Below, piece by piece: positions 13,741 through 35,927 of a stretch of DNA of 55,614 bases. Positions within the stretch are counted from its first letter, which is position 1; each line of letters starts with the position of its first letter. Position numbers and translations under genes: made by a program. The notes beneath the pieces are model-generated. The model saw only the letters and a program-made list of their open reading frames with translations. It did not search any database and was not told the origin of the DNA. Origin of the DNA: an uncultured bacterium (GTDB lineage: Bacteria > Oederibacteriota > JAJYGY01 > DAIDJD01); contig CAZFUM010000001.1 in NCBI GenBank assembly GCA_964521965.1, positions 1 to 55,614 of the forward strand, in the 5' to 3' direction.

Positions 13741-14292
13741 ATGAGCGCCCGCACACCTGAGATCGATCTACACCCACAAGCTATGCCTGGCCAGGGCCCT
13801 GAACAGGCCCTGGCAGCTTGCCGCCATTTTCTTGAAACGACGCATGCGGCAGGGCATGCCGAAGTGCGTATTATCACCGGTTTAGGCCTTCATGGCGATG
13901 GCACGCCCCGCCTGCGCCTGCGCGTTGAAAGGGAAGTGCTGAGCGCCATGGCAATGCGCATCATTGCCACCCACTATGAGCAGAATGGCGCTGTCATCCG
14001 TGTTGAGTTCAATAAGACTGCAGCAAAGCCTAGCGCCCGCCATTTGCGGGCCCTCAAACAGCAAGCGACATTGCATCAGCGCATTCAGCTCGAAGAGCGC
14101 CTACTCGTAGCCTGGGACCGTTTAGATGCCGCCTGGGAAGCTCTTGATCATGGCGATCTGAGACGTGCAAAATTAAAGGCCAATCAGTTAATGAGAGAAT
14201 TTTTTACCGCTAGGCCAGCGCTAACTGAAGATCAGGACGCACTCGAGATCTTCTTGAAAGATATTGAAAAAAAACTCCACGAGGGGGATTAG
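13741..14292 (+). CDS. Smr (small MutS-related) domain protein with a helical C-terminal extension
   Basis: IDLHPQ...ALAACRHFLE...GHAEVRIITGLGLHGDG...LRLRVEREV fits the Smr domain pattern. It is divergent from dnaA. Confidence 0.7.
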   Translation: MSARTPEIDLHPQAMPGQGPEQALAACRHFLETTHAAGHAEVRIITGLGLHGDGTPRLRLRVEREVLSAMAMRIIATHYEQNGAVIRVEFNKTAAKPSARHLRALKQQATLHQRIQLEERLLVAWDRLDAAWEALDHGDLRRAKLKANQLMREFFTARPALTEDQDALEIFLKDIEKKLHEGD

Positions 14293-14293
14293 T

Positions 14294-16354: not shown

Positions 16355-17328
16355 AGCACGCTGCCCGGGCATTTTGCATCTGCCTGCTCACAGCTGAAAT
16401 CGGGCTACGCTTGGCAAGCTCTAGCTTCTGGCAAGAATGGGGCAGGGCAGAACTTGTGGGCGCATCCAGTTTGACAGATTATGTCACTGCCGTACGCATA
16501 GCAGTTCCAAGCCAAACTCACGTTTGGCTTTTTGGTGACAGTGTGCTTTACGGTAGTGCCCTGCTCGAGCACCACACGCCCCATTGGCGCGAGAAGACAG
16601 TTGGCAGCTATTTAAGGCGACAGGATTCTCAACGAAACTGGAGTGAAATATCAGCCGAAGGCTTGCTGATTCCTGATTTGAGGGCGATTGTTCAAATAGC
16701 GCAACCTGCAGCTCGTGATACGCTCATCATAGAACTTAACTACCGAATGTTCAGCGCTGACGCAGGCCAAATTGAGAATTCTTATTCACGCAATTTTCTA
16801 GCGCCTGCATATCAATCAGATTGGGAAGAGAATCTTGCTGCCTATTCAGCCTATTATCGGTACGCCCAAATTGCCCGATATCTTTTTTGGCAACCATCAC
16901 GCGAGACACGCGTGGCCCAATGGCTGCGTTTCGGCAAGGCTCTTGGCACAGGGCCCGCTGTAGACGACGAGCTCAGAGCCAATCTGTTAGCGATGAAAAT
17001 CTCACCCTATTATTCTGCGCCGGCTCTGGCGCCCCAGCATGCAGGTCTAGCCGCACTGAATGCCTGGTTGCCTGAATTGCTCCAACAAAAAGGCAGGGTA
17101 CTGGTCTTCCTCACCCCACAAAATTGGGACTTAATCGGCGAGTATACCGATGAAAAGGCTTATGCCAAAAACCGAAAAATCCTGAAAAATTTGCCTTGGC
17201 CCAAGAATGTAATCTATGTGGATTGGGCTGACAGAAAACCCAGTCAAGGACGTTTCTTAGATCATTGCCATCTAGACGAAGTCGGTAATCAGGAGCTGGC
17301 GACATGGCTGCTCAAGGAGCTGCCATGA
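16306..17328 (+). CDS. Membrane-anchored SGNH-family protein (DltD/AlgJ/PatB-like O-acyltransferase/esterase)
   Basis: SGNH block I VWLFGDSVLYGS and block V FLDHCHLDEVGNQELA. N-terminal hydrophobic segment AFCICLLTAEIGL. ATG 16306 has an AGGGA SD. TTG 16351, which overlaps the upstream stop, is an alternative start. Confidence 0.75.
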   Translation: MGGLDYGLDIYRKTALKHAARAFCICLLTAEIGLRLASSSFWQEWGRAELVGASSLTDYVTAVRIAVPSQTHVWLFGDSVLYGSALLEHHTPHWREKTVGSYLRRQDSQRNWSEISAEGLLIPDLRAIVQIAQPAARDTLIIELNYRMFSADAGQIENSYSRNFLAPAYQSDWEENLAAYSAYYRYAQIARYLFWQPSRETRVAQWLRFGKALGTGPAVDDELRANLLAMKISPYYSAPALAPQHAGLAALNAWLPELLQQKGRVLVFLTPQNWDLIGEYTDEKAYAKNRKILKNLPWPKNVIYVDWADRKPSQGRFLDHCHLDEVGNQELATWLLKELP

Positions 17329-17435
17329 AGTGGCGCAATTGGCTCATAGGTGTGGCGGCATTCTTGCTGCTGACAGCGCTATTGGTCTGGGGCGCTGGCT
17401 TTGCCGCTTCTAAATTCATATACGTGGACTTTTAG
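17325..17435 (+). CDS. DltX-like 36-aa single-pass membrane peptide (not in the ORF track)
   Basis: AAGGAG lies 5 nt upstream. The ATG overlaps the upstream TGA (ATGA), and its TAG abuts the ATG of the MBOAT gene. Translation is MKWRNWLIGVAAFLLLTALLVWGAGFAASKFIYVDF*. Confidence 0.6.
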   Translation: MKWRNWLIGVAAFLLLTALLVWGAGFAASKFIYVDF

Positions 17436-18575
17436 ATGATATTCAATACGCCCTGGTTCATCGCGTTTCTCATCATCTACTATGCGATGACCTGGCTCAC
17501 GCCAGGCCCCAAAACACGCTATGCATTGTTATTGATAGCTTGCGCTATTTTTCACACGCATTTCGCTGGACCGTCTGGTGTGGCCCCCATCATCGTCATG
17601 GCGGTCAGCACATACTATATCGCTGGGCCACTTTCACGAGCCCAGGGCGCGCGGCGCATGCACTACCTTTTGCTTGGCCTAGCCGTGCCGGTAGCAGGGC
17701 TGATCTGGTACAAATATCGCGGATTCTTTGGCATGGGCCAGGTTGGCGCTATGCCACTGGCGATTTCGTTTTTCACTTTTGAATTTGCGCATTATCTCAC
17801 TGACATTTACAAGGGTTCGCAGCCCATACGCAATGCGGGTGACTTCACGCTGTTTAGCATCTATTTTCCGTCTATCGTCTCGGGTCCTATCAAGCGCTAT
17901 CAGCCATTCACCGAAAGTCTGAAGCGGGGCATTCCCCATCCCATGCATAATCCTTTGGCCCTCAAAGGCGCAGGCCGCGTGCTGCTAGGTTTTTCTAAGA
18001 AAATGCTCGTGGCCGATAATTGCAGCGTAGCTATCGCTTTACTTGAGAAAGCAGATCAATGGAACACGTCATCTGTCGTTGCCTTAATCGTTTTGCTCAC
18101 CATTCGTATTCTCTTTGACTTTTCTGGCTATTCAGATATCGCCATTGGTCTGGCAGAAATTTGCGGCATTGAAGTGCCGCAGAATTTCAATTTTCCCTAT
18201 GCTGCACGCAACATTCAAGATTTCTGGCGGCGGTGGCATATGTCGCTGTCGAGTTGGATACGCGACTATATTTACATACCGTTGGGTGGTTCACGCGCCG
18301 CACCCTGGCGTCGAGCTCTTAATCTCTTACTCGCCATGGGCCTTTGTGGGCTCTGGCATGGGGCGGCCTGGAACTTTGTGCTCTGGGGCCTTTACCATGG
18401 CATGGGAATGAGCGTTCACGCTCTGTGGGCCAAACGCTTTCCGGCTCCTGAAGGCCGAGATCCATTGCGTTTTGTTTTTTCGTGGGCGCTAACCCTCGTT
18501 TTTGTGGCCTGGGGTTGGTTGCTCTTTACCTATCCATTGGCTAAAGTAATCGAAATTTCCCGCCATCTGTTTTGA
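17436..18575 (+). CDS. MBOAT-family membrane-bound O-acyltransferase (DltB/AlgI/PatA-like)
   Basis: FFTFEFAHYLTDIYKG, SIVSGPIKRY, FWRRWHMSLSSWIRDYIYIPLGG, and GLWHGAAWNFVLWGLYHG with the conserved His. At 379 aa it is closer to DltB size than to AlgI. Confidence 0.9.
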   Translation: MIFNTPWFIAFLIIYYAMTWLTPGPKTRYALLLIACAIFHTHFAGPSGVAPIIVMAVSTYYIAGPLSRAQGARRMHYLLLGLAVPVAGLIWYKYRGFFGMGQVGAMPLAISFFTFEFAHYLTDIYKGSQPIRNAGDFTLFSIYFPSIVSGPIKRYQPFTESLKRGIPHPMHNPLALKGAGRVLLGFSKKMLVADNCSVAIALLEKADQWNTSSVVALIVLLTIRILFDFSGYSDIAIGLAEICGIEVPQNFNFPYAARNIQDFWRRWHMSLSSWIRDYIYIPLGGSRAAPWRRALNLLLAMGLCGLWHGAAWNFVLWGLYHGMGMSVHALWAKRFPAPEGRDPLRFVFSWALTLVFVAWGWLLFTYPLAKVIEISRHLF

Positions 18576-18588
18576 GGCCTGCCTAAAA

Positions 18589-20123
<1,535 letters not shown>

Positions 20124-23551: not shown

Positions 23552-25507
23552 TCAATTCAAGATTCTTCGCACATCTGCACGACTTGGATCAAGTTCAAGT
23601 ACTTTCTGAAAGGCTTGGCGTCCCTCGGCGGGGCGCCCCGTCTTAAAATACGTTACCCCTAGGTTATACCAAGCATCAATATAGCCTGGCTTATTACTAA
23701 GACTTTGGCGGTAGGCAAGTTCGGCTTCTTGCATGCGCCCCATGCGGTGCAGGGCATTGCCGCGGTTATAGGGAAATTCGTGGCTGCTCGCATCCCAAAC
23801 TTCAGCGTCCTCATAAAGTTTGAGCGCATCGGCCAAGGCGCCGGATTCTTCAGCTAAGGTGCCCAAAGAATTATGAAAAATCGCAAAATCATTCACCATC
23901 AGCTTGCGACTATTAACGTCTAGCTTTGGATCACGGTAGCCACGCTTGCGAACTAAGGCCAGATTGTGGCGGCCACGCTGAAGCCAATCTTTAGGTGCCG
24001 CTGCAGCCAAAACCAGGGGCTGATAGATTTGACCCGCAGGTAGCAGGCGCCAGCCATTCAGCTCTTTGGGCAACTCGTTATAGGTGAAAAACTGGGGCTT
24101 TTCGGCATTGAGGCGAAGCAGTGCTTCGAGTATGGCAGGGGTAGATTCATTGCCAGCGCGAGTATCCACCCAAGGCAGCCGCATAGCCGGAAAACGCCGA
24201 GCCAAATCTTCACGTACCCAACGCATAGGCAATAACGGCACACCCACGATTGCCACGTCCCTGCGTTCTCCTTTGACAAACTGGGCATACCAAAGGGGAA
24301 ATACCGACGCATCGCCCGAAGTATAAAGCACTGAGTTGCGTGGCAGAGCTGCCAAAACATCTCGGGCTCTGTCGAGCGCCATGAAATATTGCGAGCGATC
24401 GCGCTTAGAAAATTGGGTTGCACCCACAGTCAAGAGACCTGCGCTGCATATAATTAAGAAGGCCGGGCTCCATTTTTTTGGCAACTTACTAAAAAGCCAT
24501 GCTGCAAGAAGGCCTTGGCAAAGATAAGCAGGGAACAAATAGGGTTCCATAATTTCAAGTCGTTCTGCCGCCAGATTGAGATAAAACGTCACAGCCAGCA
24601 ATGGAGCCAACACCCCCAGCACAAGGGCGTTGACCCAAGCATCGCGGCGCCCATGCCATGCTGCCCAAGCAGCCAAGGGCAGCGCCACATAATGGCCTTC
24701 ACGCAAGAGATAGCCCAACGCCTCACGTAATTGCTGCCAGGAGCCTGCCAGACTTCGCGTGCCCTCGGCAGCGGCATATTGCGCTCTTAGAAAATAAAAA
24801 AAGAAATCTCCCAAGGAATTAAATTCGCCCCAATGCACCGGTGGACTTGATGCTGAACGCAAAGGGAAATAGGCGTATAACGTGAGTCCTGGCAAAAGCA
24901 GCCAGCTTTGACGCAACCATAACCGCCACGCCAAAGGCTTGCCTTGGCGAGCCAAGATGAAGAATGCGGGTGCTAGCACGAGTTGACTCATGTAGTGGTG
25001 AGCCGCGCCCAGGCCTAACAAAAGCCAGAAAGCAGCGTACCGCTGCTTCTCACGCATGACCAGAGTTAGGACCAAAATTTCTGCCAGGGTGATGGCATTG
25101 TTCAAGCCATAAACCGAGCCTTTGGCGATCAAAGCCTGGCGCCAAAAAGCGGGCCCAAGCCCAATTGCGATAGCAGCCAAAATGGCTAACCAGAAGTTTC
25201 GGGTTAGAGACAAAACCCAAAAACCTAGCAGCCCAGCGGTTAGAGAAAACCAAAAAGCCGAAGCCGCGGCCAATCGCCAGCCCGCATCACCTAGAGGCAG
25301 GATGCAGGCCGTACGGTGCAACAACGTGTGAAGGGGATATCCGGGCGGATGGCCTATGCTAAGGGTCCAGGCCAGGGTCGCGGTCTCGCCGCTGTCATCG
25401 AGATAAATTGACGACGAAAGCGTCTGCAGGTAAAAAACGAAAACAGTCAAAAAAAGAGCCGCCCCCAGGGCGGCTCTTTTTTGAATTGGGATACTATCGG
25501 GCGTCAT
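23552..25507 (-). CDS. DUF2723 / TMEM260-like polytopic GT-C-fold glycosyltransferase with C-terminal TPR repeats
   Basis: The N-terminal YLDDSGETATLAWTLSIGHPPGYPLHTLL motif is typical of DUF2723. At least 10 TM segments. C-terminal TPRs (RGNALHRMGRMQEAELAYRQSLSNKPGYIDAWYNLGVTYFKTGR). Confidence 0.8.
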   Translation of the reverse strand: MTPDSIPIQKRAALGAALFLTVFVFYLQTLSSSIYLDDSGETATLAWTLSIGHPPGYPLHTLLHRTACILPLGDAGWRLAAASAFWFSLTAGLLGFWVLSLTRNFWLAILAAIAIGLGPAFWRQALIAKGSVYGLNNAITLAEILVLTLVMREKQRYAAFWLLLGLGAAHHYMSQLVLAPAFFILARQGKPLAWRLWLRQSWLLLPGLTLYAYFPLRSASSPPVHWGEFNSLGDFFFYFLRAQYAAAEGTRSLAGSWQQLREALGYLLREGHYVALPLAAWAAWHGRRDAWVNALVLGVLAPLLAVTFYLNLAAERLEIMEPYLFPAYLCQGLLAAWLFSKLPKKWSPAFLIICSAGLLTVGATQFSKRDRSQYFMALDRARDVLAALPRNSVLYTSGDASVFPLWYAQFVKGERRDVAIVGVPLLPMRWVREDLARRFPAMRLPWVDTRAGNESTPAILEALLRLNAEKPQFFTYNELPKELNGWRLLPAGQIYQPLVLAAAAPKDWLQRGRHNLALVRKRGYRDPKLDVNSRKLMVNDFAIFHNSLGTLAEESGALADALKLYEDAEVWDASSHEFPYNRGNALHRMGRMQEAELAYRQSLSNKPGYIDAWYNLGVTYFKTGRPAEGRQAFQKVLELDPSRADVRRILN

Positions 25508-25516
25508 GAACCTGAC

Positions 25517-25915
25517 TCAGGCGTTGAAATACTTGTCCAAAAAATCCATTGTATTATCCTCGTCACGCACAACATGCAAACCCATCGCCCAGTGGCCATA
25601 CAAATTGAAGGCATTACGCTTAACACGCGCCACGTGAGTTGTGATACGCATTTTTGTTTTCGCTCGATTCTCGAGGGTCAAGGTGACATCAAGCACGGTT
25701 TTTAAATCAAGCTCAACATCTGAATTGATGAGCAGGCCCGTCCGGCTAATATTGATCGTACGTCCGCCAAAACTATCGCCTGGACGCATCATGGTGCGCC
25801 CTACACGAAGCATCGGCAACGCCACTACCTTGCATTCTACTGGCAACACCTTGGTAACTCGCTTGGCGATGCGTGTTTCATCGACAACCTTTTTTGCGCG
25901 TTTTGAAACGGCCAT
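25517..25915 (-). CDS. PilZ-domain protein (predicted c-di-GMP receptor)
   Basis: ATG 25915 has GAGG 5 nt upstream. An RxxxR element (RIAKR) and N-x-S-x-x-G (NISRTG) are spaced about 37 aa apart. The longer track ORF (to 26011) would run through the tRNA-Leu gene. Confidence 0.7.
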   Translation of the reverse strand: MAVSKRAKKVVDETRIAKRVTKVLPVECKVVALPMLRVGRTMMRPGDSFGGRTINISRTGLLINSDVELDLKTVLDVTLTLENRAKTKMRITTHVARVKRNAFNLYGHWAMGLHVVRDEDNTMDFLDKYFNA

Positions 25916-25933
25916 GCCTGCCTCAAAAAATAG

Positions 25934-26017
25934 TGCCGAAGGAGAGACTCGAACTCTCATGCCCTTGCGGACGGAGGATTTTGAGTCCTCTGCGTCTACC
26001 AGTTCCACCACTTCGGC
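25934..26017 (-). tRNA. tRNA-Leu (CAA), class II with a long variable arm
   Basis: The reverse complement is GCCGAAGTGGTGGAACTGGTAGACGCAGAGGACTCAAAATCCTCCGTCCGCAAGGGCATGAGAGTTCGAGTCTCTCCTTCGGCA. Acceptor GCCGAAG/CTTCGGC. Anticodon loop CTCAAAA. CCA is not encoded. Confidence 0.9.
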
Positions 26018-26193: not shown

Positions 26194-28782
26194 GTGGCAG
26201 ATGACAAAAAAACAGTCGTTAAAATGGCTTATATCTATTCCCAGGAAGGTCGCTGGGAAAAAGCCATTGCTGAATATAAAAAGCTGATTAAGCTCGATCC
26301 TGAAGACTTTAATGCCCAGAACATGATGGGTGATGTTTATGTCAAAAAGGGAGAGGCGCAACCAGCTTTTGAATCCTATTGGATTGCCTCTGAAGCCTAT
26401 TCACGCCTTGGCCAAATGGAAAAAGCCGGGGTAGTTTATCGAAAAATTGCAAAACTTGATCCGAAACTACTCACTCCTGAATCACAAAAAAAACAGGTCG
26501 TTTTTCAAAAACTAGCAGAAGGCGACGCCGCCCTCGAAGCGGGCGAATTTGACAGAGCCATCGAAGCCTATCAAGCCGTACTGCAACTTGACCCTGAACG
26601 TTTTGATATATTCCAAAAACTGGGTGACCTTCACCTTCGCAAAGGTGAGCTCGAAAAAGCCGTGCGCCAGTACAAAGATATTGCCGACATTTATTTCAAA
26701 AATAAATTGCACAAAAAAGCCGCCCCAATTTACAAGAAAATCATTGAGCTAGACCCATCTGATGTCGATGCACACGCAGCCATGGGCGAGATCCACGCTA
26801 AGTCTGGCAACGAAAGCGACGCCAAAAAAGAATACTTATTAATAGCTGAGGCCATGCTCAATAAGGGCGACCTCGACACGGCCATGAATTTTGCCAAAAA
26901 AGCTGTGGCACTCAAAAGCATTGAAGCCTATTTCTACCTTGGCCAGGTCCTCTTCAAGCAAGGTAAGTTTGACGAAGCCAAAGCTGAATACGAGAAATTA
27001 TTACGCGTAAAGAGCAACCATGCTGGCGCCCTCATTAGCATGGGCCAGATTCAACTCAAGGCTGGTAGTGCCGACGAAGCCCTAAAGAATTTCGAGAAGG
27101 CTCTCAAGGTAGACAAAAACAATCTCGAAGCTTACGAGCTAGCTGCAGCGCAACTGGCCGTGAAGGGCCAAAATCAGCAAGCGGCAGTTTATTTAGCCGA
27201 AGCTTCAGCTATAGCGGCCATGGGCAACCAAACTGAAAGAGCGGCTGAGCTAGCGCAACGGGCCAAAGGTTTGGATCCTGCAGTCAAAATGACTGATAGT
27301 CAGGGCGCAGAGAACAACGCCAATATTGAAGGCAGCGGTCAAACAGCTGCACCCCTAAGCCCGCCTGCCCCTGTGACAACATTCACTCCCTCTAGCTCGA
27401 CAGCGCCAACGCCAGAGCCAGAGCCTTTACACGAAGAACTGCCCAGTTCTGCTCCGGCACTGCCACCCCTACCCGTGATCGCAAGTTTCGCGATGCCTCC
27501 GGCCCCAGCACCACAGCTCGAAGCGCCTGCCCAAGATCCACAAGAAGAGCGCAGCACTTTATTGACCATGGCGCAGAATTTAATGGCCGAAGGATCGCTG
27601 GATGAGGCGCTCAGTGTCTATCAACGCATCCTTACAGATTTTCCTGAGGATGCCGAAGCCAAAGCTGGCCAACGACGAGTATTCAGCCTCTTGGCTCAAG
27701 ACGCCATGGGTGGGGCTGTTCCTGCCATAGCCCATACGGCACAAGAAGACGAAGCGCGTCGCAAGGCAGAGGTCGATTCAGCCAAACTGCGCGCCGAAGA
27801 AGATGCTAGGCTCAAAGCCGACGCCGCCGACGCCTCTGCGCGCCTAGAACAATTGCGCCAGCAGGCAGAAGATGAACAAAGAAAATTGGTTGAAATGCGC
27901 CGTGCCCAAGATGAAGCGCACAGAAAGGCCGAGGCAGAAGAAATTGCGCTTCGTGAAGCTGCCGACGCCCGACGCAAAGCTGAAGATGAAACAGCTCGTA
28001 AGAAGCAGGAAGAAGATAGCAAACGTCTGAGCGAAGACGAGCTTCGCAAGCAGGTCGAGACGCAAATACGCAAACAGCTCGAAGAAGAATATCGACGCAA
28101 AGCCGAAGAAGATGCCCGCAAAAGAGCTGATGAAGAAGTAGAACGCAGGGTCGAAGAAGCGCGCAAGAAAGCCGAAGAAGAGGCCCGCACAAAAGTCGAA
28201 GAAGAGACGCGTAGAATATTTGCGGAAGAGAGCAAAAAGCTCGACGCGGAAAAGGATGATACTCGAAAAATGCTCCAGGCCGAGATGCGCTTAGCTATCG
28301 AAGCGCAAGAAAAAGCCAAATTCGACCAAGAGTCCCTGACTAAAGTAGATGCTGAGCGCAAAAAGGCCGAGTTCGAGACCAAGCAAAAAATTCAACAAGA
28401 GGTGCTAGCTCGCGTACAATCCCAACAAAAAGAGAAGCAGGCGGTCTACCAGAAGACCATTGAAGAAATTCGCAGAAAAGTCGAAGAAGCTAAACAACTA
28501 CCCGGTGAATCAGCCAAGCCTGCTCCGGCGCAAGCTAGCAGCGCAGTAGATGAAATGGATGATTTTATGACCGCCACCGTGGCCGATATTTACACCAAAC
28601 AAGGTTTGGTCAAGGAAGCCGTCAAGATTTATGAAAAGATTCTTGCAAGAGAACCCGGCAATGCCGAGATACGAAAAAAGCTTGATGCCTTGACCGGAAA
28701 AGTGCCTGCGCCTGAAATGGCCAGAACTGAAGAAAAAAGCGATGAGAGCACAAAGAAGAAAAGCAAGGTATCCTATCTTTGA
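26194..28782 (+). CDS. Large cytoplasmic TPR protein with a Pro/Thr-rich linker and a long E/K/R/A-rich charged helical (TolA-like / single-alpha-helix-like) region
   Basis: GTG start. About 370 aa of N-terminal TPRs. Linker APLSPPAPVTTFTPSSSTAPTPEPEP. About 250 aa of RKAEEDARKRADEEVERRVEEARKKAEEEARTKVEEE-type sequence. A terminal TPR. No signal peptide. Confidence 0.85.
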   Translation: MADDKKTVVKMAYIYSQEGRWEKAIAEYKKLIKLDPEDFNAQNMMGDVYVKKGEAQPAFESYWIASEAYSRLGQMEKAGVVYRKIAKLDPKLLTPESQKKQVVFQKLAEGDAALEAGEFDRAIEAYQAVLQLDPERFDIFQKLGDLHLRKGELEKAVRQYKDIADIYFKNKLHKKAAPIYKKIIELDPSDVDAHAAMGEIHAKSGNESDAKKEYLLIAEAMLNKGDLDTAMNFAKKAVALKSIEAYFYLGQVLFKQGKFDEAKAEYEKLLRVKSNHAGALISMGQIQLKAGSADEALKNFEKALKVDKNNLEAYELAAAQLAVKGQNQQAAVYLAEASAIAAMGNQTERAAELAQRAKGLDPAVKMTDSQGAENNANIEGSGQTAAPLSPPAPVTTFTPSSSTAPTPEPEPLHEELPSSAPALPPLPVIASFAMPPAPAPQLEAPAQDPQEERSTLLTMAQNLMAEGSLDEALSVYQRILTDFPEDAEAKAGQRRVFSLLAQDAMGGAVPAIAHTAQEDEARRKAEVDSAKLRAEEDARLKADAADASARLEQLRQQAEDEQRKLVEMRRAQDEAHRKAEAEEIALREAADARRKAEDETARKKQEEDSKRLSEDELRKQVETQIRKQLEEEYRRKAEEDARKRADEEVERRVEEARKKAEEEARTKVEEETRRIFAEESKKLDAEKDDTRKMLQAEMRLAIEAQEKAKFDQESLTKVDAERKKAEFETKQKIQQEVLARVQSQQKEKQAVYQKTIEEIRRKVEEAKQLPGESAKPAPAQASSAVDEMDDFMTATVADIYTKQGLVKEAVKIYEKILAREPGNAEIRKKLDALTGKVPAPEMARTEEKSDESTKKKSKVSYL

Positions 28783-28828
28783 TTGCAAGCAGGTTTCCGT
28801 TGCCTGAGCAGATCACAAGGAGCATGGT

Positions 28829-29656
28829 TTGAGTTACGAACAGCATTTTGGTTTGGTCGAACAACCCTTTTCTAATGCAGCGGACAGTCGTTTTTATTTT
28901 CAGAGTGAGCAGCATCAAGAGGCGATGATCCGCATCCAGCATTCCATCGATACCATGAAAGGTCTGACGGTGGTCATCGGCGGCAGCGGCGCTGGCAAAA
29001 CTCTCTTGGCGCGGCGCGTGCTTGAAAAACTCGAAGAAGACGACAAGCAAAACGAAGCCGCACTACTCGTCATTGTGCATTCTGAAATATCCGCTGAGTG
29101 GCTATTACGCAAAATCGCCTTGCAACTGGGCATTGATCAACCCGCTGAGAAAAAAGCTGATTTGCTACCCCAGCTCTTTGAGCGTTTGATGGCCATTTAC
29201 GAGGCTGGACGTCGGGCTGTTGTGATTATTGATGAAGCCAACATGCTTAAATCAAAAGAAATCTTTGAAGAGTTTAGGGGTTTATCAAATCTCGAAGTGC
29301 CGGGCCGCAAACTCATCTCAATTGTTCTATTTGGTTTGCCTGACCTTGAACTCAATATGTCTGTCGACCCACCCTTAGTGCAACGAGTGGCGGTTAAAGT
29401 GCAGCTCAAGCCACTCACTCCGCAGGGAACTGGCGCTTATATTCAGCATCGCATGCGTGTGGCTGGTACCCAACGCGAAATTTTTTCGCCGGACGGTATC
29501 GCGGCCATTCACAAAGCCAGCCAAGGCGTGCCGCGCCTTATCAATACACTTTGCGACAATGCCTTACTTGAGGCCTTTTTGGTAAAGAGGGAGCAGGTGA
29601 GTGACGCCCTGGTCCGCGACGTCGCCAAAGATCTCGGCCTCACCTTAGGAGTCTGA
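28829..29656 (+). CDS. ExeA/GspA/MshM-like AAA+ ATPase (cytoplasmic domain only)
   Basis: TTG start. The N-terminus YEQHFGLVEQPFSNAADSRFYFQSEQHQEA is typical of ExeA-family proteins. Walker A GGSGAGKT and Walker B VVIIDEAN. No TM segment or peptidoglycan-binding domain. Confidence 0.8.
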   Translation: MSYEQHFGLVEQPFSNAADSRFYFQSEQHQEAMIRIQHSIDTMKGLTVVIGGSGAGKTLLARRVLEKLEEDDKQNEAALLVIVHSEISAEWLLRKIALQLGIDQPAEKKADLLPQLFERLMAIYEAGRRAVVIIDEANMLKSKEIFEEFRGLSNLEVPGRKLISIVLFGLPDLELNMSVDPPLVQRVAVKVQLKPLTPQGTGAYIQHRMRVAGTQREIFSPDGIAAIHKASQGVPRLINTLCDNALLEAFLVKREQVSDALVRDVAKDLGLTLGV

Positions 29657-29657
29657 C

Positions 29658-30608
29658 GTGAACCGCACTGGACTTTGGCATAAACTATTAGCATTAGCGC
29701 TTGTGCTTGTAGCTGCCTCTTGGGTGCTGGGCGACAAACCACAGGGCTTGCGACAACGCTTGCCTTTGGGCCGGTCTCGAATTGCCGTGGTACCGCTTTA
29801 CGGCGAGATCGTTGATCCCGGTCCCGTGACTCGCTTACTACGCCGCTACCGCGATGACATCTCAGGCGTGAAAGCCATTGTGCTCGCTATTGATAGTCCA
29901 GGTGGCGACGTTGCTTCATCGCAAGAAATCAGCGATACCATTCGCGAAATTCAGAATGACGGCATTCCCGTGGTGGCGGCTCTAGGTTCAGTTGCGGCTT
30001 CGGGTGGCTATTATGTCGCCGCGCCTGCGCGCCGAGTAGTCGCCAACGCAGGTACTCTCACGGGTAGCATTGGCGTGATCTTTGAGGCGCCCTACTATGG
30101 TGGTCTTTTTCAAAAAGTAGGTGTGGATCTCCAAATCGTCAAATCGGGTGAATTCAAAGATATGGGCAATCCAACTCGCCGTATGGGCGACGCAGAACGC
30201 CGACGCTTTCAAGAAGTCATTGATGATGTCTATGATCAGTTCTTGCACGAAATCCTCTCAGGCCGCAAAGAGGCACTGACACAACTCTTGGCCGAAAAAC
30301 GCGGGGTCAAAGCTGCTCGCATTGATGAAGCTCAGCTGCTAGCCTACCTGCGTACTTTTGCTGATGGCCGCGTTTTTTCAGGTCGTCAGGCTTTGGCCTA
30401 TGGTTTGGTCGATGAGCTTGGTGGTTTGAGTCAAGCTATCCGTGTCGCGGCTGAGCTGGCTCAAGTCGAAGATTACGATGTCATCACGCACCGTCCCGCT
30501 CGCAGCTTCAGCGAATGGATAACGGGCATGAGCAAGACTGAACTCAAAGGCGAACTAAAAGAAGCCTTTGGTGTCAAAGCCCGTCGCTTTGGATTCTTTG
30601 CCTGGTAG
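29658..30608 (+). CDS. sppA: Signal peptide peptidase SppA, 36K type (S49 family)
   Basis: GTG start with an AGGAG SD, 1 nt after the upstream stop. N-terminal TM anchor. IDSPGG, and the catalytic-Ser region GSVAASGGYYVA. Confidence 0.9.
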   Translation: MNRTGLWHKLLALALVLVAASWVLGDKPQGLRQRLPLGRSRIAVVPLYGEIVDPGPVTRLLRRYRDDISGVKAIVLAIDSPGGDVASSQEISDTIREIQNDGIPVVAALGSVAASGGYYVAAPARRVVANAGTLTGSIGVIFEAPYYGGLFQKVGVDLQIVKSGEFKDMGNPTRRMGDAERRRFQEVIDDVYDQFLHEILSGRKEALTQLLAEKRGVKAARIDEAQLLAYLRTFADGRVFSGRQALAYGLVDELGGLSQAIRVAAELAQVEDYDVITHRPARSFSEWITGMSKTELKGELKEAFGVKARRFGFFAW

Positions 30609-30628
30609 ACACACGAGGAGGTAAGACT

Positions 30629-32881
30629 ATGGCCGAAGACATCGGTCAAAATCCCGAAGAAACACAGAGCCCTGCCATCGACGAACGCGCAATCACCCGC
30701 GGCGCCAACTCCAGTTCAGATGCGTCTCGCAAGAAATCTGCGTGGATGGGTGGAGGCGTTTGGCTGATCCTTGGTTTGATATTTATGGCGCTCAGCTTGA
30801 TGGGGATTTTCACCTATGCTTCAGGTTCAAGCCTGCCATGGATCTTAGGTGCGGGCTTGCTGGGTTGGGGACTCTTAGATCTCGCCAATAGCGCACGTGG
30901 CATGAATGACTGGAAGTCAAAAGGGGCGAAAGCCCGCAATCTTCTGAATTTAGCTCGCGGACTCTTCCTAGCTGGATTAGGCGGCTTTTTACTCGTCCGA
31001 ACTTTAACTCACGCTCTCCCTTTGGCTTCCAATTCATTACTACTTCTAGGCGTGGGCTTTATGGTTCTATACTTGGTCGTAGCCTATGTCGTTGAACTTA
31101 CGACCGAATCACGCGACGTACTGCCTCATGCCATGCTACTTTCCGCCCTGGCTCTTCAATTTCTTGCCTTTGTTTACCTTAGTGTGCCCTTCACATTAAC
31201 CTGGGCCTCAGTCTTCGGCTTTACCTCACTACTCTTTGCTACACTTGCCATTTTGCGAGGCGCTCTTAAAGCTAACCCTTCAGTCGCGGGCAGCGTTGCT
31301 TTGGCGACGATCGGCCTAGCACTACCACTAGTACTATTTCTGCTTCATTCTATCTGGGGCCGTGCGCTTCAGCCGGTGCAACAAGAAACACTTTTTGTCC
31401 CCCGTTTTCAAGAACTGCATGGACCCGTTAGTCGCCAAGCCCACGGCTTAGCGTGGTCGCCCGTGCATTCTCAGGCCAGTGTACCTGGCCTTATCGCTTA
31501 TTCCGACAAGTTGGCCTATCTAGATCGCCAAGCTAAAACCGGAAACCAGGTACTAAATATCTATGTCCAAAACGAAAGGAAGCCTTACACCTTGAACTAT
31601 GCCGTAAGTTCTAGCGCTCAAGCGGCATGGTGGGCGCCGGATGCACGCCAAGTCTTGGTCACATCGCTGCAAGGCAAGCCCGTCAAAGGGGAACTCAGTA
31701 TCTATAATTGGGTCGACCCTACTGACAGCAGTACAGCAGTGACCCGTTCCGCCACGCTTAAAGCTGACGTGATGCAGCAACGCGCCCATGGCCAAATTTG
31801 GACACCCAAGAGTGATGCTTTCTACTATGCCGCACCCTCTTCGGCAATGAAGCAAAAAAGGGTCAAGCTGGCTATGAGTAGTCCTGATTTTTCTAAAAAA
31901 CCAAAAATATTGGCAGGCGGCCAATTTCGTTTTCATCCGGCCCTCAACCAGCTTGGCGACACCTTGCTTTATGTTAGTCATGAAGAAAGTAAGCGTGTGC
32001 TCGAAATTGGGCAGGGCTCAGAGGGTGCCCATGTTCGGCAGTTCTCGTCAGACAGAGAAAAGCATCGCTTCCCAGCCTGGAACGCCAAACAAACTCATGT
32101 GCTCTTTTTTGACGCTGAGGGCACCTTTAAATTTATGAGTTCCAACGATCAAAATGATGCCCAACCCTTTGAAAACTATATGCTCAACAGTAAGATCTGG
32201 AAGACCCAGTCCAACAGCGAAATGTTTACCTTAGATGAAGTAGAAACCGGATCACGGGGTCGTATTTTTATATCGCGTCCCGATGGCCGCCGTGAAAAGT
32301 TAATATACGAGACGAACTGCTCAGAAATCTTCCCGCCGATTTGGTCAAACGACGGGCGACGCATTGCCATGATCATCCGCGATGGCCGACGCTATTCCAT
32401 ACTCACCATGAATTCCGATGGTTCTTGGCCCACACGCTTCTTCCTCACCCATGATCGCCTACGCCAATTGAGCTGGTGCCCTGATTCAGCCCACCTGGCG
32501 TACTTATGCGACCGTAACGAAGGCAAGCAGGAACTTTGGATAGCCGCTGCTGATGGAACCAGCCCAGAGCGACTGTATGAAAGTCATGGTCAATTAAGCA
32601 GTCTGAGTTGGTCACCCGAAGGCCAACACGTCGCAGTCGAAGAAAAAGATGCTTACACCTTGTTGGGTTTTCGCATTATTCGCCCCGATCTTTTTGGCAT
32701 CATGGTTGTTGATATCAAAGATCGCAAAGCCCGATCTCTCACAGCCGGCCGTCTTTTTGCGCGCCAGCCTGCCTTCTCGCCCCACGGCAGTATGATGGGC
32801 TTCTTCACTGACGGAGCGCGATGGTCGCTTAGCCTGAATGCAGACCGCGCAGCAGTTTTAGCTGTCTCGCAACTACGTTGA
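30629..32881 (+). CDS. Polytopic inner-membrane protein with a large C-terminal PD40/TolB-like beta-propeller region
   Basis: GAGGAGG SD. About 7 hydrophobic helices in the first ~250 aa. Then repeated PD40 signatures (WSNDGRRIAMI, WCPDSAHLAYL, WSPEGQHVAV, FSPHGSMMGF). Confidence 0.8.
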   Translation: MAEDIGQNPEETQSPAIDERAITRGANSSSDASRKKSAWMGGGVWLILGLIFMALSLMGIFTYASGSSLPWILGAGLLGWGLLDLANSARGMNDWKSKGAKARNLLNLARGLFLAGLGGFLLVRTLTHALPLASNSLLLLGVGFMVLYLVVAYVVELTTESRDVLPHAMLLSALALQFLAFVYLSVPFTLTWASVFGFTSLLFATLAILRGALKANPSVAGSVALATIGLALPLVLFLLHSIWGRALQPVQQETLFVPRFQELHGPVSRQAHGLAWSPVHSQASVPGLIAYSDKLAYLDRQAKTGNQVLNIYVQNERKPYTLNYAVSSSAQAAWWAPDARQVLVTSLQGKPVKGELSIYNWVDPTDSSTAVTRSATLKADVMQQRAHGQIWTPKSDAFYYAAPSSAMKQKRVKLAMSSPDFSKKPKILAGGQFRFHPALNQLGDTLLYVSHEESKRVLEIGQGSEGAHVRQFSSDREKHRFPAWNAKQTHVLFFDAEGTFKFMSSNDQNDAQPFENYMLNSKIWKTQSNSEMFTLDEVETGSRGRIFISRPDGRREKLIYETNCSEIFPPIWSNDGRRIAMIIRDGRRYSILTMNSDGSWPTRFFLTHDRLRQLSWCPDSAHLAYLCDRNEGKQELWIAAADGTSPERLYESHGQLSSLSWSPEGQHVAVEEKDAYTLLGFRIIRPDLFGIMVVDIKDRKARSLTAGRLFARQPAFSPHGSMMGFFTDGARWSLSLNADRAAVLAVSQLR

Positions 32882-32903
32882 TTTAGACCCAAGGAACTGT
32901 GCC

Positions 32904-35870
32904 ATGGCAGGCTTTGTTCGTGTCCTCATTCTGCTTTTGGCATTTGCAAACGCCGGCCCGCTGCATGCCTACAACAAGCAGCGGGCCAAAAAATTTGAAT
33001 GGAAAGTACTCAGTACCCCTCATTTTGAAATTTATTTTTATCCCGAAGAAGAAGAACTAGCGCGCCGAGCCGCAATCATTGCCGAAAAAGGCTATCTCAA
33101 TAATTCACGTTTGCTAGACTATTTCGCCAAAGAGAAAATTCCGCTCTTCCTCTATCAAAGCCACCTCGAATTTCAACAAACCAATATCTCGAGAGAAGTC
33201 ATAGGTCCTGGGACAGGTGGTTTCACCGAAGGTTTCAAGAACCGCATGGTGCTGCCGACCATGGGCTCTGAAAAATGGCTCGAAGTAGTTATTGTCCATG
33301 AGTTGGCCCACGCCACCCAGTTCAACATCCTCTATGGCGAAGGTTCGCGGTCCTGGCAGGTTCTCCGCAACTACGTCATCCCACTTTGGGTCATGGAGGG
33401 CATGGCTGAATATTGCGCCCACAATTGGGATAGCTATTCTGACATGGTCATGCGCGATGCTGTACTCAATGACCGCATACCTGACCTCGATATGATGGAC
33501 GGTTTCAGCCATTTGGATGAAGTTTACGTAGCCTATAAGGCGGGCCAAACCGCCATTCAGTTTCTCTCTGACACCCAGGGCCCCGCTGCCGTTGCGAGCT
33601 TAATGAAAAAATTTAAGGCGCAAATCTCTGTTGGTCAGGTCATTCGCGACGTCACCGGAAAATCCTACGGCCAATTTAATCGTGAATGGAAAGCCTCGCT
33701 TCGTCAAAAATATTGGAGCGCACTAGGAGAGAAAAAGGCCGCTGGCGCCTATGCTAAGCCCCTCACTCATGATGATTCAAGCCGCTTTACGCACAGTAAT
33801 GGCGCCACTTGGTCGCCCGATGGTCGCCACCTGGCCTATGTCACAACACTAAGAGGGCGCGAAGAAATTTGGGTCATGGATGCAGATGGCAAGAACGCTA
33901 AGCCTCTCTTCACAGGACCTTTTGAAGAGATTGGACGTTCAGGCGGCTATGGCGTGTCGGGCCAGCGCCTCAGTTGGACCAACCGCGGCAATCAGATTGC
34001 CTTTATTCAGGCTCGAGCCGGTCGCAAACGCCTGACGCTAGGATCGACATCGAATGGCAAGCTTCGCGAGCTAGAACTTCCTTTTGACGAAATGAGCTCG
34101 CCACGTTTTAGCCCCGATGGCAGACAGATCGCTTTGGCCGTTTATCAAGGTGGCCGTTCAAGGCTCATGACGGTTGAGGTCGACAGCGCCTTGTGCCGTG
34201 AAATCTACAGCGACCCAAGCTTATCGATGATTGCCGATCCAGCTTGGTCGCCCATGGGCGATCGCCTGCTTTTCAGTGCTGAACAAAATCGTAGCAACCA
34301 AATTTTTGAAGTGAGTAGCCAAGGCGGAACGGCAAAACGCATTAGCTCAGGCCAAAACGATGCCATCATGCCTGCCTACCTCGACAAGGGCGAGAAAGTG
34401 CTCTTCAGCAGTGATGCCGGGGGAGCTTATGACCTCTACACCATGGACCGAACGGGTGGCCAGCTGCTTCAGCACACAAAGCTCGTGACAGGTTTCTTTC
34501 AAGCCGAGCCGAGTCCCAATGGCTCAAAATTACTTTGCGTAGCTTATGAAGATGGCTGTCAAAACATCTATGTCATGGATGCCCCGGGCTATCTGCGTGA
34601 GCCACCCAGCGCAGGGCTACGCCTATTATCTAATCCCTACCTGGCCGTGGCGCGTCTGCTAACAGCCACAGCCCACGAGTCAGGCGTGGGGCTACCCGGA
34701 GACGCGGCTCTTGAAGGCATGAGCCCAGACTTAGATGCGGCGATGGCATTGCCTAAAACACCACTCGCAGGGCACTATCTTGACGGTGACGCCCTTGCCG
34801 TAACCTTAACAGCTCAAGATATAAGCACACGGCCCTATCGCCTTAAAATTACACCCGATATTTTCTTTATGGTATTGGCGTTTGACAATTTCAGCGGCCT
34901 AGTGGGCGGTGGCTATTTTACTGCCAGTGATATGCTGGGCGACCATAATTTTAATATCTTTGCCAATTTCGTGCCGGGCTATCAGTCTGTTTTTCAGACT
35001 GACTATGTTTGGTTCAAAGGACCGTTCACTTATTCTGTGGCTGCGTTCTATCGCAATACCAATTATTTCTTAACAGGTATTAACCCCCAGCAAGTCGCTT
35101 CAACTTTCTTAGACCAAGATTGGGGCGCTGCATTGACAGCCTCTTATCCCCTCAGCGCATTCACCCGACTCGAAACTTCATTGGGCTCGCGATATCTACT
35201 ACGCGCAGCCAATGGCGCCGGCTTTGTCGATCCTGTGCTACGCTCAACGCTAGGCGAGTCTCTCATTAATTCTGTCAGCCTAAACTTGGTGCATGACACC
35301 CACACCTTTCAAGACTACCAGCCTTATCGCGGCCAATTGCTTCGCTTGACCACCAGCTATGCTGATAAATTCTTGGGGGCAACCCGTAATTTTGCTTTGC
35401 ACCAAGCCGAGTACCGTTTCGCTCTACCACTGACTTTTTTGAGCCGCGATACGGTCTTTAGCGCAAGGGCCTTGGCTTTAGGTCAAAGCGGCTCAGATCG
35501 CCACCTCTTCTATTTTGGTGGGGCACAAGTACGCGGCCTTAGCTATAACGAGGAACTAGCCGAACATCTTGGTATGATCAACATTCAGATCCGCCAACCC
35601 TACCTTAAAAATATAAATGGAAGCCTTTGGCCCTTAGATTATCTTTTGATTAAAGACGCTCAATTAGTCTTCTATTACGACTTTGGCTTGGCTCTGCGCG
35701 ATGGGCAGTCCTTACTTTGGAGCGATGTAAGGGCGGGTTACGGCGGTGGCATACGCCTTCACACCTTTATGTTTGAAAAAGTACTCTTAGTATTCAGCTT
35801 TGATATCGCTCAACGCACCGACCGTTACGGAACAACCTACTATTACTTCAATTTAGGGCAGATATTTTGA
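32904..35870 (+). CDS. Secreted multidomain protein: HExxH metallopeptidase-like domain + PD40/TolB-like propeller(s) + C-terminal Omp85/surface-antigen-type beta-barrel
   Basis: Signal peptide MAGFVRVLILLLAFANAGPLHA. VVIVHELAHATQF...MEGMAEY (peptidase MA-like). WSPDGRHLAYV, FSPDGRQIALA and WSPMGDRLLFSA (PD40). LFYFGGAQVRGLSYNE, and a C-terminal ...YYFNLGQIF ending in Phe (OMP beta-signal). Confidence 0.8.
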   Translation: MAGFVRVLILLLAFANAGPLHAYNKQRAKKFEWKVLSTPHFEIYFYPEEEELARRAAIIAEKGYLNNSRLLDYFAKEKIPLFLYQSHLEFQQTNISREVIGPGTGGFTEGFKNRMVLPTMGSEKWLEVVIVHELAHATQFNILYGEGSRSWQVLRNYVIPLWVMEGMAEYCAHNWDSYSDMVMRDAVLNDRIPDLDMMDGFSHLDEVYVAYKAGQTAIQFLSDTQGPAAVASLMKKFKAQISVGQVIRDVTGKSYGQFNREWKASLRQKYWSALGEKKAAGAYAKPLTHDDSSRFTHSNGATWSPDGRHLAYVTTLRGREEIWVMDADGKNAKPLFTGPFEEIGRSGGYGVSGQRLSWTNRGNQIAFIQARAGRKRLTLGSTSNGKLRELELPFDEMSSPRFSPDGRQIALAVYQGGRSRLMTVEVDSALCREIYSDPSLSMIADPAWSPMGDRLLFSAEQNRSNQIFEVSSQGGTAKRISSGQNDAIMPAYLDKGEKVLFSSDAGGAYDLYTMDRTGGQLLQHTKLVTGFFQAEPSPNGSKLLCVAYEDGCQNIYVMDAPGYLREPPSAGLRLLSNPYLAVARLLTATAHESGVGLPGDAALEGMSPDLDAAMALPKTPLAGHYLDGDALAVTLTAQDISTRPYRLKITPDIFFMVLAFDNFSGLVGGGYFTASDMLGDHNFNIFANFVPGYQSVFQTDYVWFKGPFTYSVAAFYRNTNYFLTGINPQQVASTFLDQDWGAALTASYPLSAFTRLETSLGSRYLLRAANGAGFVDPVLRSTLGESLINSVSLNLVHDTHTFQDYQPYRGQLLRLTTSYADKFLGATRNFALHQAEYRFALPLTFLSRDTVFSARALALGQSGSDRHLFYFGGAQVRGLSYNEELAEHLGMINIQIRQPYLKNINGSLWPLDYLLIKDAQLVFYYDFGLALRDGQSLLWSDVRAGYGGGIRLHTFMFEKVLLVFSFDIAQRTDRYGTTYYYFNLGQIF

Positions 35871-35900: not shown

Positions 35901-35927
35901 TTGACACCCTTAGGGGTGTCTTATAAT
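35901..35927 (+). promoter_or_regulatory. Candidate strong sigma70 promoter of the yceD-rpmF-plsX-fab operon, with a palindrome in the spacer
   Basis: Perfect TTGACA (35901-35906) and TATAAT (35922-35927) separated by 15 nt. The 7-bp inverted repeat gacaccc-ttag-gggtgtc overlaps the -35 element and spacer. Confidence 0.5.

Follow-up and report, generated by a model that had tools for sequence, protein, structure and literature searches.

Positions 26194 to 35870 of a 55,614-nt contig from an uncultured bacterium (assembly GCA_964521965.1, contig CAZFUM010000001.1; the whole contig is called the window below) hold five co-directional genes, g1 to g5, and raise the question of whether their products form a single trans-envelope machine. 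That was the proposal of an earlier reading made from the sequence alone, which added that this was not a system it could name. The evidence described here tilts toward a different interpretation, in which g1 to g5 would be one operon-like array, a lineage-specific variant of the sgmX/bd2492 operon type, and not an obligatory five-subunit complex. Names do exist for two parts of the array: g1 and g2 correspond to the sgmX/MXAN_5765 pair, and g5 is a WD40-Omp85 protein (PMC4104836). The five genes are as follows.

26194..28782, + strand: g1, 862 amino acids, GTG start; tetratricopeptide repeat (TPR) scaffold of the SgmX/Bd2492 family, predicted cytoplasmic
28829..29656, + strand: g2, 275 amino acids, TTG start; AAA+ ATPase of the ExeA/GspA/MshM class
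29658..30608, + strand: g3, 316 amino acids, GTG start; signal peptide peptidase SppA of the 36K type, predicted to be anchored in the inner membrane
30629..32881, + strand: g4, 750 amino acids, ATG start; inner-membrane protein with seven transmembrane (TM) segments and tandem TolB/tricorn-like propellers, the propellers predicted periplasmic; lineage-restricted
32904..35870, + strand: g5, 988 amino acids, ATG start; HExxH protease, TolB-like propeller and Omp85 barrel without polypeptide-transport-associated (POTRA) domains

The open reading frame (ORF) list of the window reproduced exactly the number, direction and lengths of the genes and the intergenic gaps of 46, 1, 20 and 22 nt that the sequence-only reading had given. 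When each internal gap was folded no stable hairpin was found, in agreement with the earlier failure to see a terminator-like hairpin between the genes, and consensus scans of the same gaps returned no promoter- or terminator-like site. Over the region, promoter-like and terminator-like matches (15 vs 11.7 ± 3.3 and 32 vs 22.4 ± 5.2 in shuffled sequence) were not clearly above expectation; such scans neither prove nor refute co-transcription. Shine-Dalgarno-like motifs lie 5' of g2 (AAGGAG ahead of the TTG start), g4 and g5. Judging from this layout, the five genes are probably co-transcribed. The predicted domains and compartments, which span the envelope, were also upheld by Pfam and NCBIfam matches, TM analysis and AlphaFold2 models. 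One element marks the downstream side of the array.

35903..35920, no strand assigned: G+C-rich palindromic hairpin GACACCC-TTAG-GGGTGTC with a 7-bp stem, between the g5 stop and yceD

A TTGACA...TATAAT-like element overlaps this hairpin. The 7-bp stem was kept in the centroid fold, and the z-score of the whole segment was only -1.5, so that the fold is weak evidence. The hairpin probably marks where the array ends on its 3' side and where the yceD-rpmF-plsX-fab unit starts.

Many TPR families of Pfam matched g1, at positions 13-360, 456-489 and 797-824, and the protein has neither a TM segment nor a signal peptide. The protein consists of an N-terminal TPR block, a Pro-rich linker (about 380-450), one TPR, a helix rich in Glu, Arg and Lys (the ERK-rich helix, about 550-700, 52-64% charged), a C-terminal TPR and the conserved tail K-x-V-S-Y-L. 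Orthologues in four other loci (L081, L085, L086 and L087), 37-50% identical to g1, have the same architecture. Alignment of the g1 family with Myxococcota SgmX by hhalign gave a probability of 100% and an E-value of 5.8e-40 over 687 columns, in register from the N-terminus (residue 3), and a C-terminal tail of the form [KR]x[VI][GST][YF][LVI] is common to both groups. By these profile comparisons g1 is homologous to SgmX, at 18-20% identity to the Myxococcota proteins. On the NCBIfam model for SgmX, NF052243, g1 scored 74.9 bits and the Myxococcota proteins 673-1526 bits (L105, 1526); with a cut-off of 1800 bits, g1 is therefore a distant member of the SgmX family and not an equivalog. The SgmX protein of Myxococcus xanthus resides in the cytoplasm, binds MglA-GTP and is indispensable for type IVa pili to form (PMC7519303), and the layout of g1, cytoplasmic with N- and C-terminal TPR blocks and a non-TPR region between them, fits the description given there. 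The sequence-only reading had drawn an analogy to pilus assembly by MshM and MshN, which pointed in the right direction, SgmX, the homologue of g1, being an activator of type IV pili. Opposite the ERK-rich, purine-rich part of g1 lie long antisense ORFs, at 27696-28382 (-), 27812-28192 (-) and 28622-29050 (-), which are most likely artefacts of biased composition and not genes.

The g2 protein matched AAA_22 (PF13401) with 78.6 bits against a cut-off of 27. It carries a Walker A motif, GGSGAGKT, at residues 51-58 (G51-T58) and a Walker B motif, VVIIDE, at residues 131-136 (V131-E136). No hydrophobic or TM segment and no peptidoglycan-binding Pfam match were found in its 275 residues; g2 thus lacks the membrane-spanning and peptidoglycan-binding portions that ExeA/GspA have, as the earlier reading had stated. 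The best NCBIfam match was TIGR03015, aligned over the full length at 196.3 bits, under the cut-off of 324.5 bits; the Myxococcota orthologue scored 195.9 bits on the same model. A sequence search of the PDB returned only remote TnsC/TniB-type matches and was uninformative. Homologues 55-79% identical to g2 occur in many lineages, including many uncultured ones at 60-79%, and the source databases label them ExeA or GspA, and the Myxococcota ATPases lie at 55-59%. The job of g2 appears to be strongly constrained, because this identity is kept while g1 has only 18-20% with Myxococcota SgmX and 34-50% with nearer orthologues. From its operon position, g2 would belong to the MXAN_5765 family.

The two genes travel together. 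A metagenome scan centred on g2 yielded 80 loci, 41 of which have at least 2.5 kb of upstream sequence, and in 40 of these 41 a same-strand g1-like ORF ends no more than 400 nt upstream of the g2 homologue. Three distant loci (L085, L086 and L087) encode a large orthologous TPR protein directly upstream of the g2 homologue; the next gene is a patatin in two of them and an opposite-strand pilD in the third (L087). In the loci examined outside the lineage of the window, the g1-g2 homologues are followed by patatin, TamB or other genes, and never by SppA, g4 or g5. These neighbourhoods show that g1-g2 is the conserved core of the array, a deeply conserved pair, and the genes behind it vary by clade, g4 being lineage-specific and g5 optional. 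The array is syntenic within the lineage, g1-g2 is paired widely, and g5 occurs elsewhere without g1 to g4. In the Goldbacteria locus L086, g1-g2-patatin is followed two genes on by a TPR protein with a YfiO/BamD domain together with ExbB/ExbD/TonB.

Two side observations concern the pair. The order TPR protein, ATPase and a patatin-like phospholipase of about 270 residues was seen at L085:10911-11711, L086:10866-11678 and L096:3225-4043 (coordinates of the patatin gene), in three low-to-medium-GC lineages that include one Goldbacteria and one of 29% G+C, and it gives the pair a further neighbour with a lipid or outer-membrane theme. Furthermore, the Myxococcota g2 homologues (L100-L171; for example L105:9995-10936) are extended at the C-terminus by a variable stretch rich in Pro/Ala, which closes with a conserved tail, (V/I)DL(A/S/E)E(I/V)DRYLExL; this tail is absent from g2 and its closer relatives. 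This tail could be a docking motif, for example for TamB or SgmX.

The closest parallel to the array is found in Myxococcota, where the g2-centred scan recovered the order accC-sgmX-ATPase-tamB-bamA, an arrangement already published. A TamB-like ORF (about 1,300 residues; PF04357, E 1.5e-56) starts no farther than about 200 nt from where the g2 homologue ends in 52 high-G+C loci, and in three further loci it is fused or overlapping (55 in total). The offsets between ATPase and TamB, measured on stop-to-stop ORFs, are mostly -4 to +36 nt. A BamA-like ORF comes after TamB in 23 of 26 loci, directly so in 22, and accC lies upstream of the TPR gene in 25 of 25; the BamA-like protein of L105 has five POTRA stretches and scored 306 bits on TIGR03303 against a cut-off of 297. 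An exact-sequence look-up placed these loci in Myxococcota (Hyalangium, Anaeromyxobacteraceae and Myxococcaceae). A phmmer search with the Myxococcota proteins against six-frame ORFs detected no TamB-like or BamA-like ORF in the window.

The four M. xanthus genes have been termed a putative operon of unknown function (PMC7668184), and the Myxococcus ATPase has been called 'of unknown function' or a 'putative Sec system ATPase'. The literature searched contained no functional study of this ATPase and nothing that ties TamB to an ExeA-type ATPase beyond this operon. In Bdellovibrio, bd2492 (TPR), bd2494 (DUF490/TamB) and bd2495 (Omp85) are co-transcribed without an ATPase gene; the Bd2492 protein has MglA, RomR and the cyclic di-GMP (c-di-GMP) receptor CdgA as binding partners, prey invasion depends on it, and the Omp85 protein of the operon is essential (Milner et al., PMC3983030).

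The array of the window resembles these operons (MXAN_5766-5763 and bd2492-bd2494-bd2495) in several ways. A cytoplasmic TPR protein, of which g1 is the homologue, comes first; in Myxococcota the ATPase follows, then an inner-membrane-anchored periplasmic protein, with the Omp85 barrel last (PMC3983030). Genes of fatty-acid and lipid synthesis flank both, accC there and plsX-fab in the window. A c-di-GMP receptor is associated in both cases, since CdgA binds Bd2492 (PMC3983030) and a PilZ gene adjoins g1. The Myxococcota operon thus has the same logic, cytoplasmic TPR protein, ExeA-type ATPase, inner-membrane-anchored periplasm-spanning protein and Omp85 barrel, and it evolved independently. 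There are also differences. The TamB/DUF490 position is filled in the window by SppA and g4; the last barrel is an optional, POTRA-less protease-propeller Omp85 protein in place of a BamA/TamA with 5-7 POTRA domains; and SgmX has a Pro/Ala/acidic linker where g1 has the ERK-rich helix. The TamB and BamA-like envelope part therefore appears to have been replaced in the window by SppA, g4 and g5.

Within the lineage the whole array is retained. Relatives whose g5 is 46-55% identical keep all five genes as well as the flanking gltA, PilZ and yceD-rpmF-plsX-fab genes. Among labelled sequences in general, those nearest to the window come from an unclassified 'bacterium', FCPU426, Firestonebacteria and Goldbacteria. 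At the junction of g2 and g3, two relatives have a 4-nt overlap, a third has one shared base and in L088 the genes are 10 nt apart. The possibility was considered that the array encodes one dedicated trans-envelope machine, in which g1 and g2 would drive or gate g4, g4 would touch g5 via the propellers, and SppA would serve as a built-in processing protease. The order and tight spacing are kept although identity has fallen to about 31-33% for g4 and 46-57% for g5, relatives show an overlap of g2 with g3, g4 was found only in this array, the predicted compartments span the envelope, and the parallel TPR-(ATPase)-TamB-Omp85 operon exists in Myxococcota and Bdellovibrio. However, the whole neighbourhood of 20 genes is collinear in these relatives, at least 15 housekeeping flank genes included, and for that reason synteny within the lineage says little about function. 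Moreover, g5 is missing from the following relatives, which are otherwise collinear.

L088/L089: relative without g5, from two sequencing runs
L091: relative without g5, 169-kb contig
JGI contig of 124 kb: relative without g5
L094, L095: relatives without g5, metagenome contigs

Since these equally close relatives pass from g4 to yceD, g5 is facultative at this site. In addition, g5 homologues are found without g1-g4 in about 75 loci of other phyla, SppA-g5 stands alone in FCPU426-type loci and g1-g2 stands alone in other clades. That close relatives lack g5, and that each module is found on its own elsewhere, speaks against a machine in which all five subunits are obligatory, and the dedicated-machine explanation is considered improbable. 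Of the earlier proposal, what stands is a gene set reaching from the cytoplasm to the outer membrane, which has a published precedent in the sgmX/bd2492 operons and is kept as an array in the lineage; what does not is the specific machine of five genes, which do not co-evolve as one unit.

The third gene is a clear SppA, matching TIGR00706 (201.1 bits against a cut-off of 155.45) and Peptidase_S49 (146.6 bits against 24.9). It has a single N-terminal TM segment at residues 6-24 and contains the motifs AASGGY and KSGEFKD, which we take to hold the catalytic Ser and Lys, respectively. SppA is directly upstream of the g5 homologue in L005, L082 and L084. The AlphaFold2 model of g4, with a predicted local distance difference test score (pLDDT) of 80 and a predicted template modelling score (pTM) of 0.73, shows seven TM helices at 40-243 and a beta-rich region at 261-749, which comes nearest in fold to TolB, tricorn and tandem propellers. 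In an exhaustive search only 24 representatives among 1.84 billion matched residues 1-540 of g4 at E<=1e-3, and g4 is therefore confined to the lineage of the window; a word-index search gave a single full-length homologue (31% identity) and, besides it, a partial match to the propeller. It diverges to 31-33% identity in relatives whose g2 is about 75% identical. Similarity between g4 and g5 was seen in short stretches only, at the level of PD40 repeats (E ~1e-6), and an origin of g4 as a recent duplicate of g5 was rejected on this ground.

The last gene encodes a signal peptide, a Peptidase_MA_2 domain and PD40 repeats according to Pfam. Its AlphaFold2 model (pLDDT 85.4, pTM 0.86) is divided into a helical peptidase (25-275), a six-bladed propeller (297-559), a disordered linker (560-640) and a 16-strand barrel (649-985). 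The 16 barrel strands are long, most blocks having pLDDT of 75-96, and Foldseek TM-scores, normalised to the BamA barrel, reached 0.64-0.71, with a resemblance to TamA as well. The g5 family profile matched BamA (E ~1e-10), 9ccg (8.6e-17) and TolB in the PDB (E 1e-41), and g5 also matched TIGR02800 (125 bits) and, in Foldseek, TolB (E 1e-13). H132, E133, H136 and E165 of the metalloprotease are invariant in 61 sequences from many phyla. A loop-6 motif, (V/I)RG(F/Y), defines the Omp85 family. In g5, loop 6 reads VRGL at 876-879, with R877 and G878 invariant in the same 61 sequences and the consensus LRGY. As the HExxH...E residues and the loop-6 RG residues are all invariant, selection acts on the protease and on the Omp85 barrel alike. 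Neither Pfam nor NCBIfam gave a POTRA match in g5, and the model has a linker of low confidence at 560-640. The g5 protein had no PF01103 match and scored 33.9 bits on NF047779 against a cut-off of 200; many of its homologues carry precomputed PF01103 matches.

These features make g5 a member of the WD40-Omp85 subfamily, which Heinz & Lithgow 2014 (PMC4104836) describe as having a TolB-like propeller, a non-POTRA N-terminus and an unknown function. Like that subfamily, g5 has a TolB-like propeller N-terminal to an Omp85-type barrel, lacks POTRA domains and has a family spread over several phyla; in contrast, the invariant HExxH Peptidase_MA_2 domain that precedes the propeller in the g5 family is not mentioned in the passages of PMC4104836 consulted. 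No functional or experimental study of the subfamily or of g5 was found in the literature searched. More than 1,200 homologues of g5 were recovered (FCPU426, Firestonebacteria, Eisenbacteria, Poribacteria, Zixibacteria, Spirochaetota and others), the nearest only 60% identical.

The surroundings of g5 were surveyed in 80 species-level loci from Acidobacteriota, Bacteroidota, Ignavibacteria, Gemmatimonadota, Calditrichia and other phyla, which were located with an alignment of 8 closer sequences and compared with the proteins of the window. Only L002 (51% identity) keeps g2-g3-g4-g5. Among the rest, SppA lies directly upstream of the g5 homologue in FCPU426-type loci only, without g4 in L082 and L084, and the other loci lack g1-g4; overall, g1-g4 are missing from the vicinity of the g5 homologue in about 75 of the 80, which belong to other phyla. 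The neighbours change from clade to clade, being a BamB-like gene plus PEGA in the Fibrobacteres-Chlorobi-Bacteroidetes (FCB) phyla, and SppA in FCPU426-type loci and in the lineage of the window.

The BamB-like gene, a same-strand PQQ propeller (PF13360, E 1e-57), is directly downstream of the g5 homologue in 23 loci of Bacteroidota, Ignavibacteria, Calditrichia, Zixibacteria, Latescibacterota and unclassified bacteria. A PEGA-domain protein follows as well in 19 loci. The loci and an example of the module are given below.

Loci with a BamB-like neighbour: L014, L018-L021, L023, L025, L028, L029, L031, L032, L034, L040, L043, L046, L047, L049, L050, L052, L056, L063, L067, L078
L014:12742-14810, same strand as the g5 homologue: example of the BamB-like/PEGA module, directly downstream

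This looks like a conserved module, and it points to a role of the protease-propeller-Omp85 subfamily resembling that of the beta-barrel assembly machinery (BAM). With its invariant HExxH and a BamB-like neighbour in FCB phyla, the family is a candidate for outer-membrane quality control. An extracytoplasmic function (ECF) sigma factor is encoded upstream of the g5 homologue in 18 loci. In FCPU426-type genomes prfB is separated from the SppA/g5 homologue by a conserved gene for about 272 residues that matches nothing in Pfam (L082:8171-8992, L083:9103-9918), and an ECF sigma/anti-sigma pair is found further upstream.

It is also possible that the genes are neighbours with no shared function, g1-g2 being a regulator pair for type IV pili or polarity, SppA an ordinary housekeeping peptidase and g4 and g5 unrelated envelope proteins, all packed into the dense co-directional region from gltA to yceD-plsX-fab. 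The surroundings are indeed housekeeping in character (dnaA, mdh-sucCD, gltA, yceD-rpmF-plsX-fabHDG-fabF-rnc and nuo), each module occurs alone elsewhere, and the downstream genes of M. xanthus are dispensable for the role of SgmX in motility. Against this, an Omp85 gene stands behind the pair in two distant lineages, with different intermediate genes and different Omp85 subfamilies, and a BamD-like gene does so in Goldbacteria, which is unlikely to be chance as there are few such genes per genome. Overlaps of the type that accompanies translational coupling are found between g2 and SppA in relatives of the lineage and between the ATPase and TamB genes in Myxococcota, and the TPR gene is co-transcribed with tamAB in Bdellovibrio. 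Mere adjacency is therefore a doubtful explanation of the array, although it has more than a slight claim.

In the favoured interpretation, which sees here the sgmX/bd2492 operon type in a form specific to the lineage, the genes of the array would be co-regulated and thematically tied to outer-membrane biogenesis. The thematic link is suggested by the recurrence of an Omp85-family gene behind the pair in two very distant lineages and by the BamD/YfiO-domain protein with ExbBD-TonB in Goldbacteria. The g1-g2 pair would be a cytoplasmic regulator of the localisation or assembly of an envelope machine, on the model of SgmX, the MglA-GTP effector that recruits and activates the type IV pilus machine. 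The products of g3 to g5 would form a set for proteolysis and outer-membrane biogenesis that acts in the periplasm and at the outer membrane, with SppA at the inner membrane and with the HExxH protease and TolB-like propeller of g5 hanging into the periplasm from the Omp85 barrel.

Several observations weigh against this interpretation. The score of g1, 74.9 bits, is far under the 1800-bit equivalog cut-off of NF052243, and the Myxococcota SgmX proteins lack the ERK-rich helix of g1. The window contains no MglA, PilB, pilin or secretin gene. Outside the lineage g4 and SppA never follow g1-g2, and inside it at least four relatives with collinear genes (g2 74-76% identical) do without g5, their g4 being followed directly by yceD. 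When mxan_5765 or mxan_5764 of M. xanthus was inactivated, social motility (S-motility) was unaffected (PMC7668184), and the pilus function of SgmX may for that reason be independent of the downstream genes. Co-transcription of g1-g5 is read from the gene spacing, and any physical coupling of g1 or g2 to g3, g4 or g5 would be hypothetical.

A bolder interpretation may be offered tentatively. The SgmX-family TPR protein and the ExeA-type ATPase could be an ancient cytoplasmic, ATP-using module that positions or controls outer-membrane biogenesis machines (TamB-BamA in Myxococcota, a BamD-like protein in Goldbacteria and Omp85 variants in the window), with g4, g5 and SppA as a non-homologous replacement of TamB/TamA in the lineage of the window. 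This is speculative and we regard it as unlikely; if true, it would be a previously unrecognised trans-envelope system with cytoplasmic ATPase input.

Apart from that interpretation, the SgmX-ATPase pair was previously known only from Myxococcus and now reaches deep-branching uncultured lineages, Goldbacteria and that of the window included. Its repeated position ahead of differing outer-membrane-biogenesis genes suggests a cytoplasmic TPR/AAA+ link to Omp85-type machines. The most valuable lead is the very strongly conserved ATPase, which accompanies SgmX-family proteins and recurs next to genes for Omp85-type machinery.

The array was also compared with other known systems. Large TPR proteins are established partners of such ATPases, MshN for MshM and PrsT for the TIGR03015 ATPase of PEP-CTERM systems, and g2 is likewise paired with g1. 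As an AAA_22 ATPase, g2 is of the same class as ExeA/GspA and MshM. Unlike ExeA/GspA it has no TM segment or peptidoglycan-binding domain, it falls below the cut-off of the PEP-CTERM family TIGR03015 (196 vs 324.5 bits), and its TPR partner is cytoplasmic and not a lipoprotein. No GspB, msh or exosortase gene was found near g2 in the window. TAM, the translocation and assembly module (TamA-TamB), shares with the array the placement of an Omp85 barrel gene after the gene for an inner-membrane-anchored periplasmic protein; however, g4, with seven TM helices and propellers, is not an AsmA/TamB-like groove protein, and g5 lacks POTRA domains. The type Vd protein PlpD (PMC11116518) resembles g5 in having an enzyme domain fused N-terminally to an Omp85 barrel, but the enzyme of g5 is a metalloprotease with a propeller and not a patatin. 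Anti-phage defence (a STAND-like ATPase with a TPR protein) was rejected, there being no meaningful PADLOC match, and conservation and the core-genome context speak against it.

Upstream, the array is flanked by dnaA, mdh-sucCD, gltA, a TMEM260-like TPR protein gene, a PilZ gene and tRNA-Leu, and downstream by yceD, plsX-fabH-fabD-fabG, fabF, rnc and nuo, with rpmF and acpP called in relatives. Among the window ORFs scanned no secretin, pilin or type II secretion system gene was found, as the earlier reading had reported, the only related gene being the divergent PilZ gene upstream. Secretin, GspB and msh pilus genes were likewise absent from the related loci, with the opposite-strand PilD gene of L087 as sole exception. 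The features next to g1 are listed here.

25517..25930, - strand: PilZ-domain gene (PilZ E 2.2e-7), divergent from g1; the real protein has about 130 residues, as in relatives
25933-26017, - strand: tRNA-Leu(CAA), overlapping the 5' part of the listed 164-residue ORF 25517-26011 (-)
23552-25507, - strand: TMEM260-like/TPR ORF, protein O-mannosyltransferase-like; adjoins PilZ in L081, L091 and L092/L093

Because the tRNA occupies 25933-26017, the true start of the PilZ gene lies inside the listed ORF. The gene is adjacent to g1 and divergent from it in all lineage members examined (L081, the P0015 contig, L091 and the JGI 3300050821 contig) and is absent next to g1-g2 outside the lineage in L085, L086 and L087. 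It may provide a c-di-GMP input. A very strong hairpin resembling an intrinsic terminator (stem of 15 bp with 8 G-C pairs, between A and T runs) lies at 25450-25482 (-), 35 nt past the PilZ stop. As it sits in the first listed codons of the TMEM260-like ORF, the true start of that ORF must lie downstream of 25450.

At a greater distance, dnaA (12241-13629, -) is about 12.5 kb upstream of the cluster, which places the window close to the region of the replication origin; no clear switch is visible in the GC skew along the window. Two + strand ORFs without a Pfam match, 14264-16354 (696 residues) and 16306-17328 (340 residues), precede an MBOAT-family acyltransferase gene and a 137-residue ORF without a match, paired in the manner of DltB/AlgI (17436-19002, +). 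The ORFs from 14264 to 19002 may constitute another envelope-modification unit.

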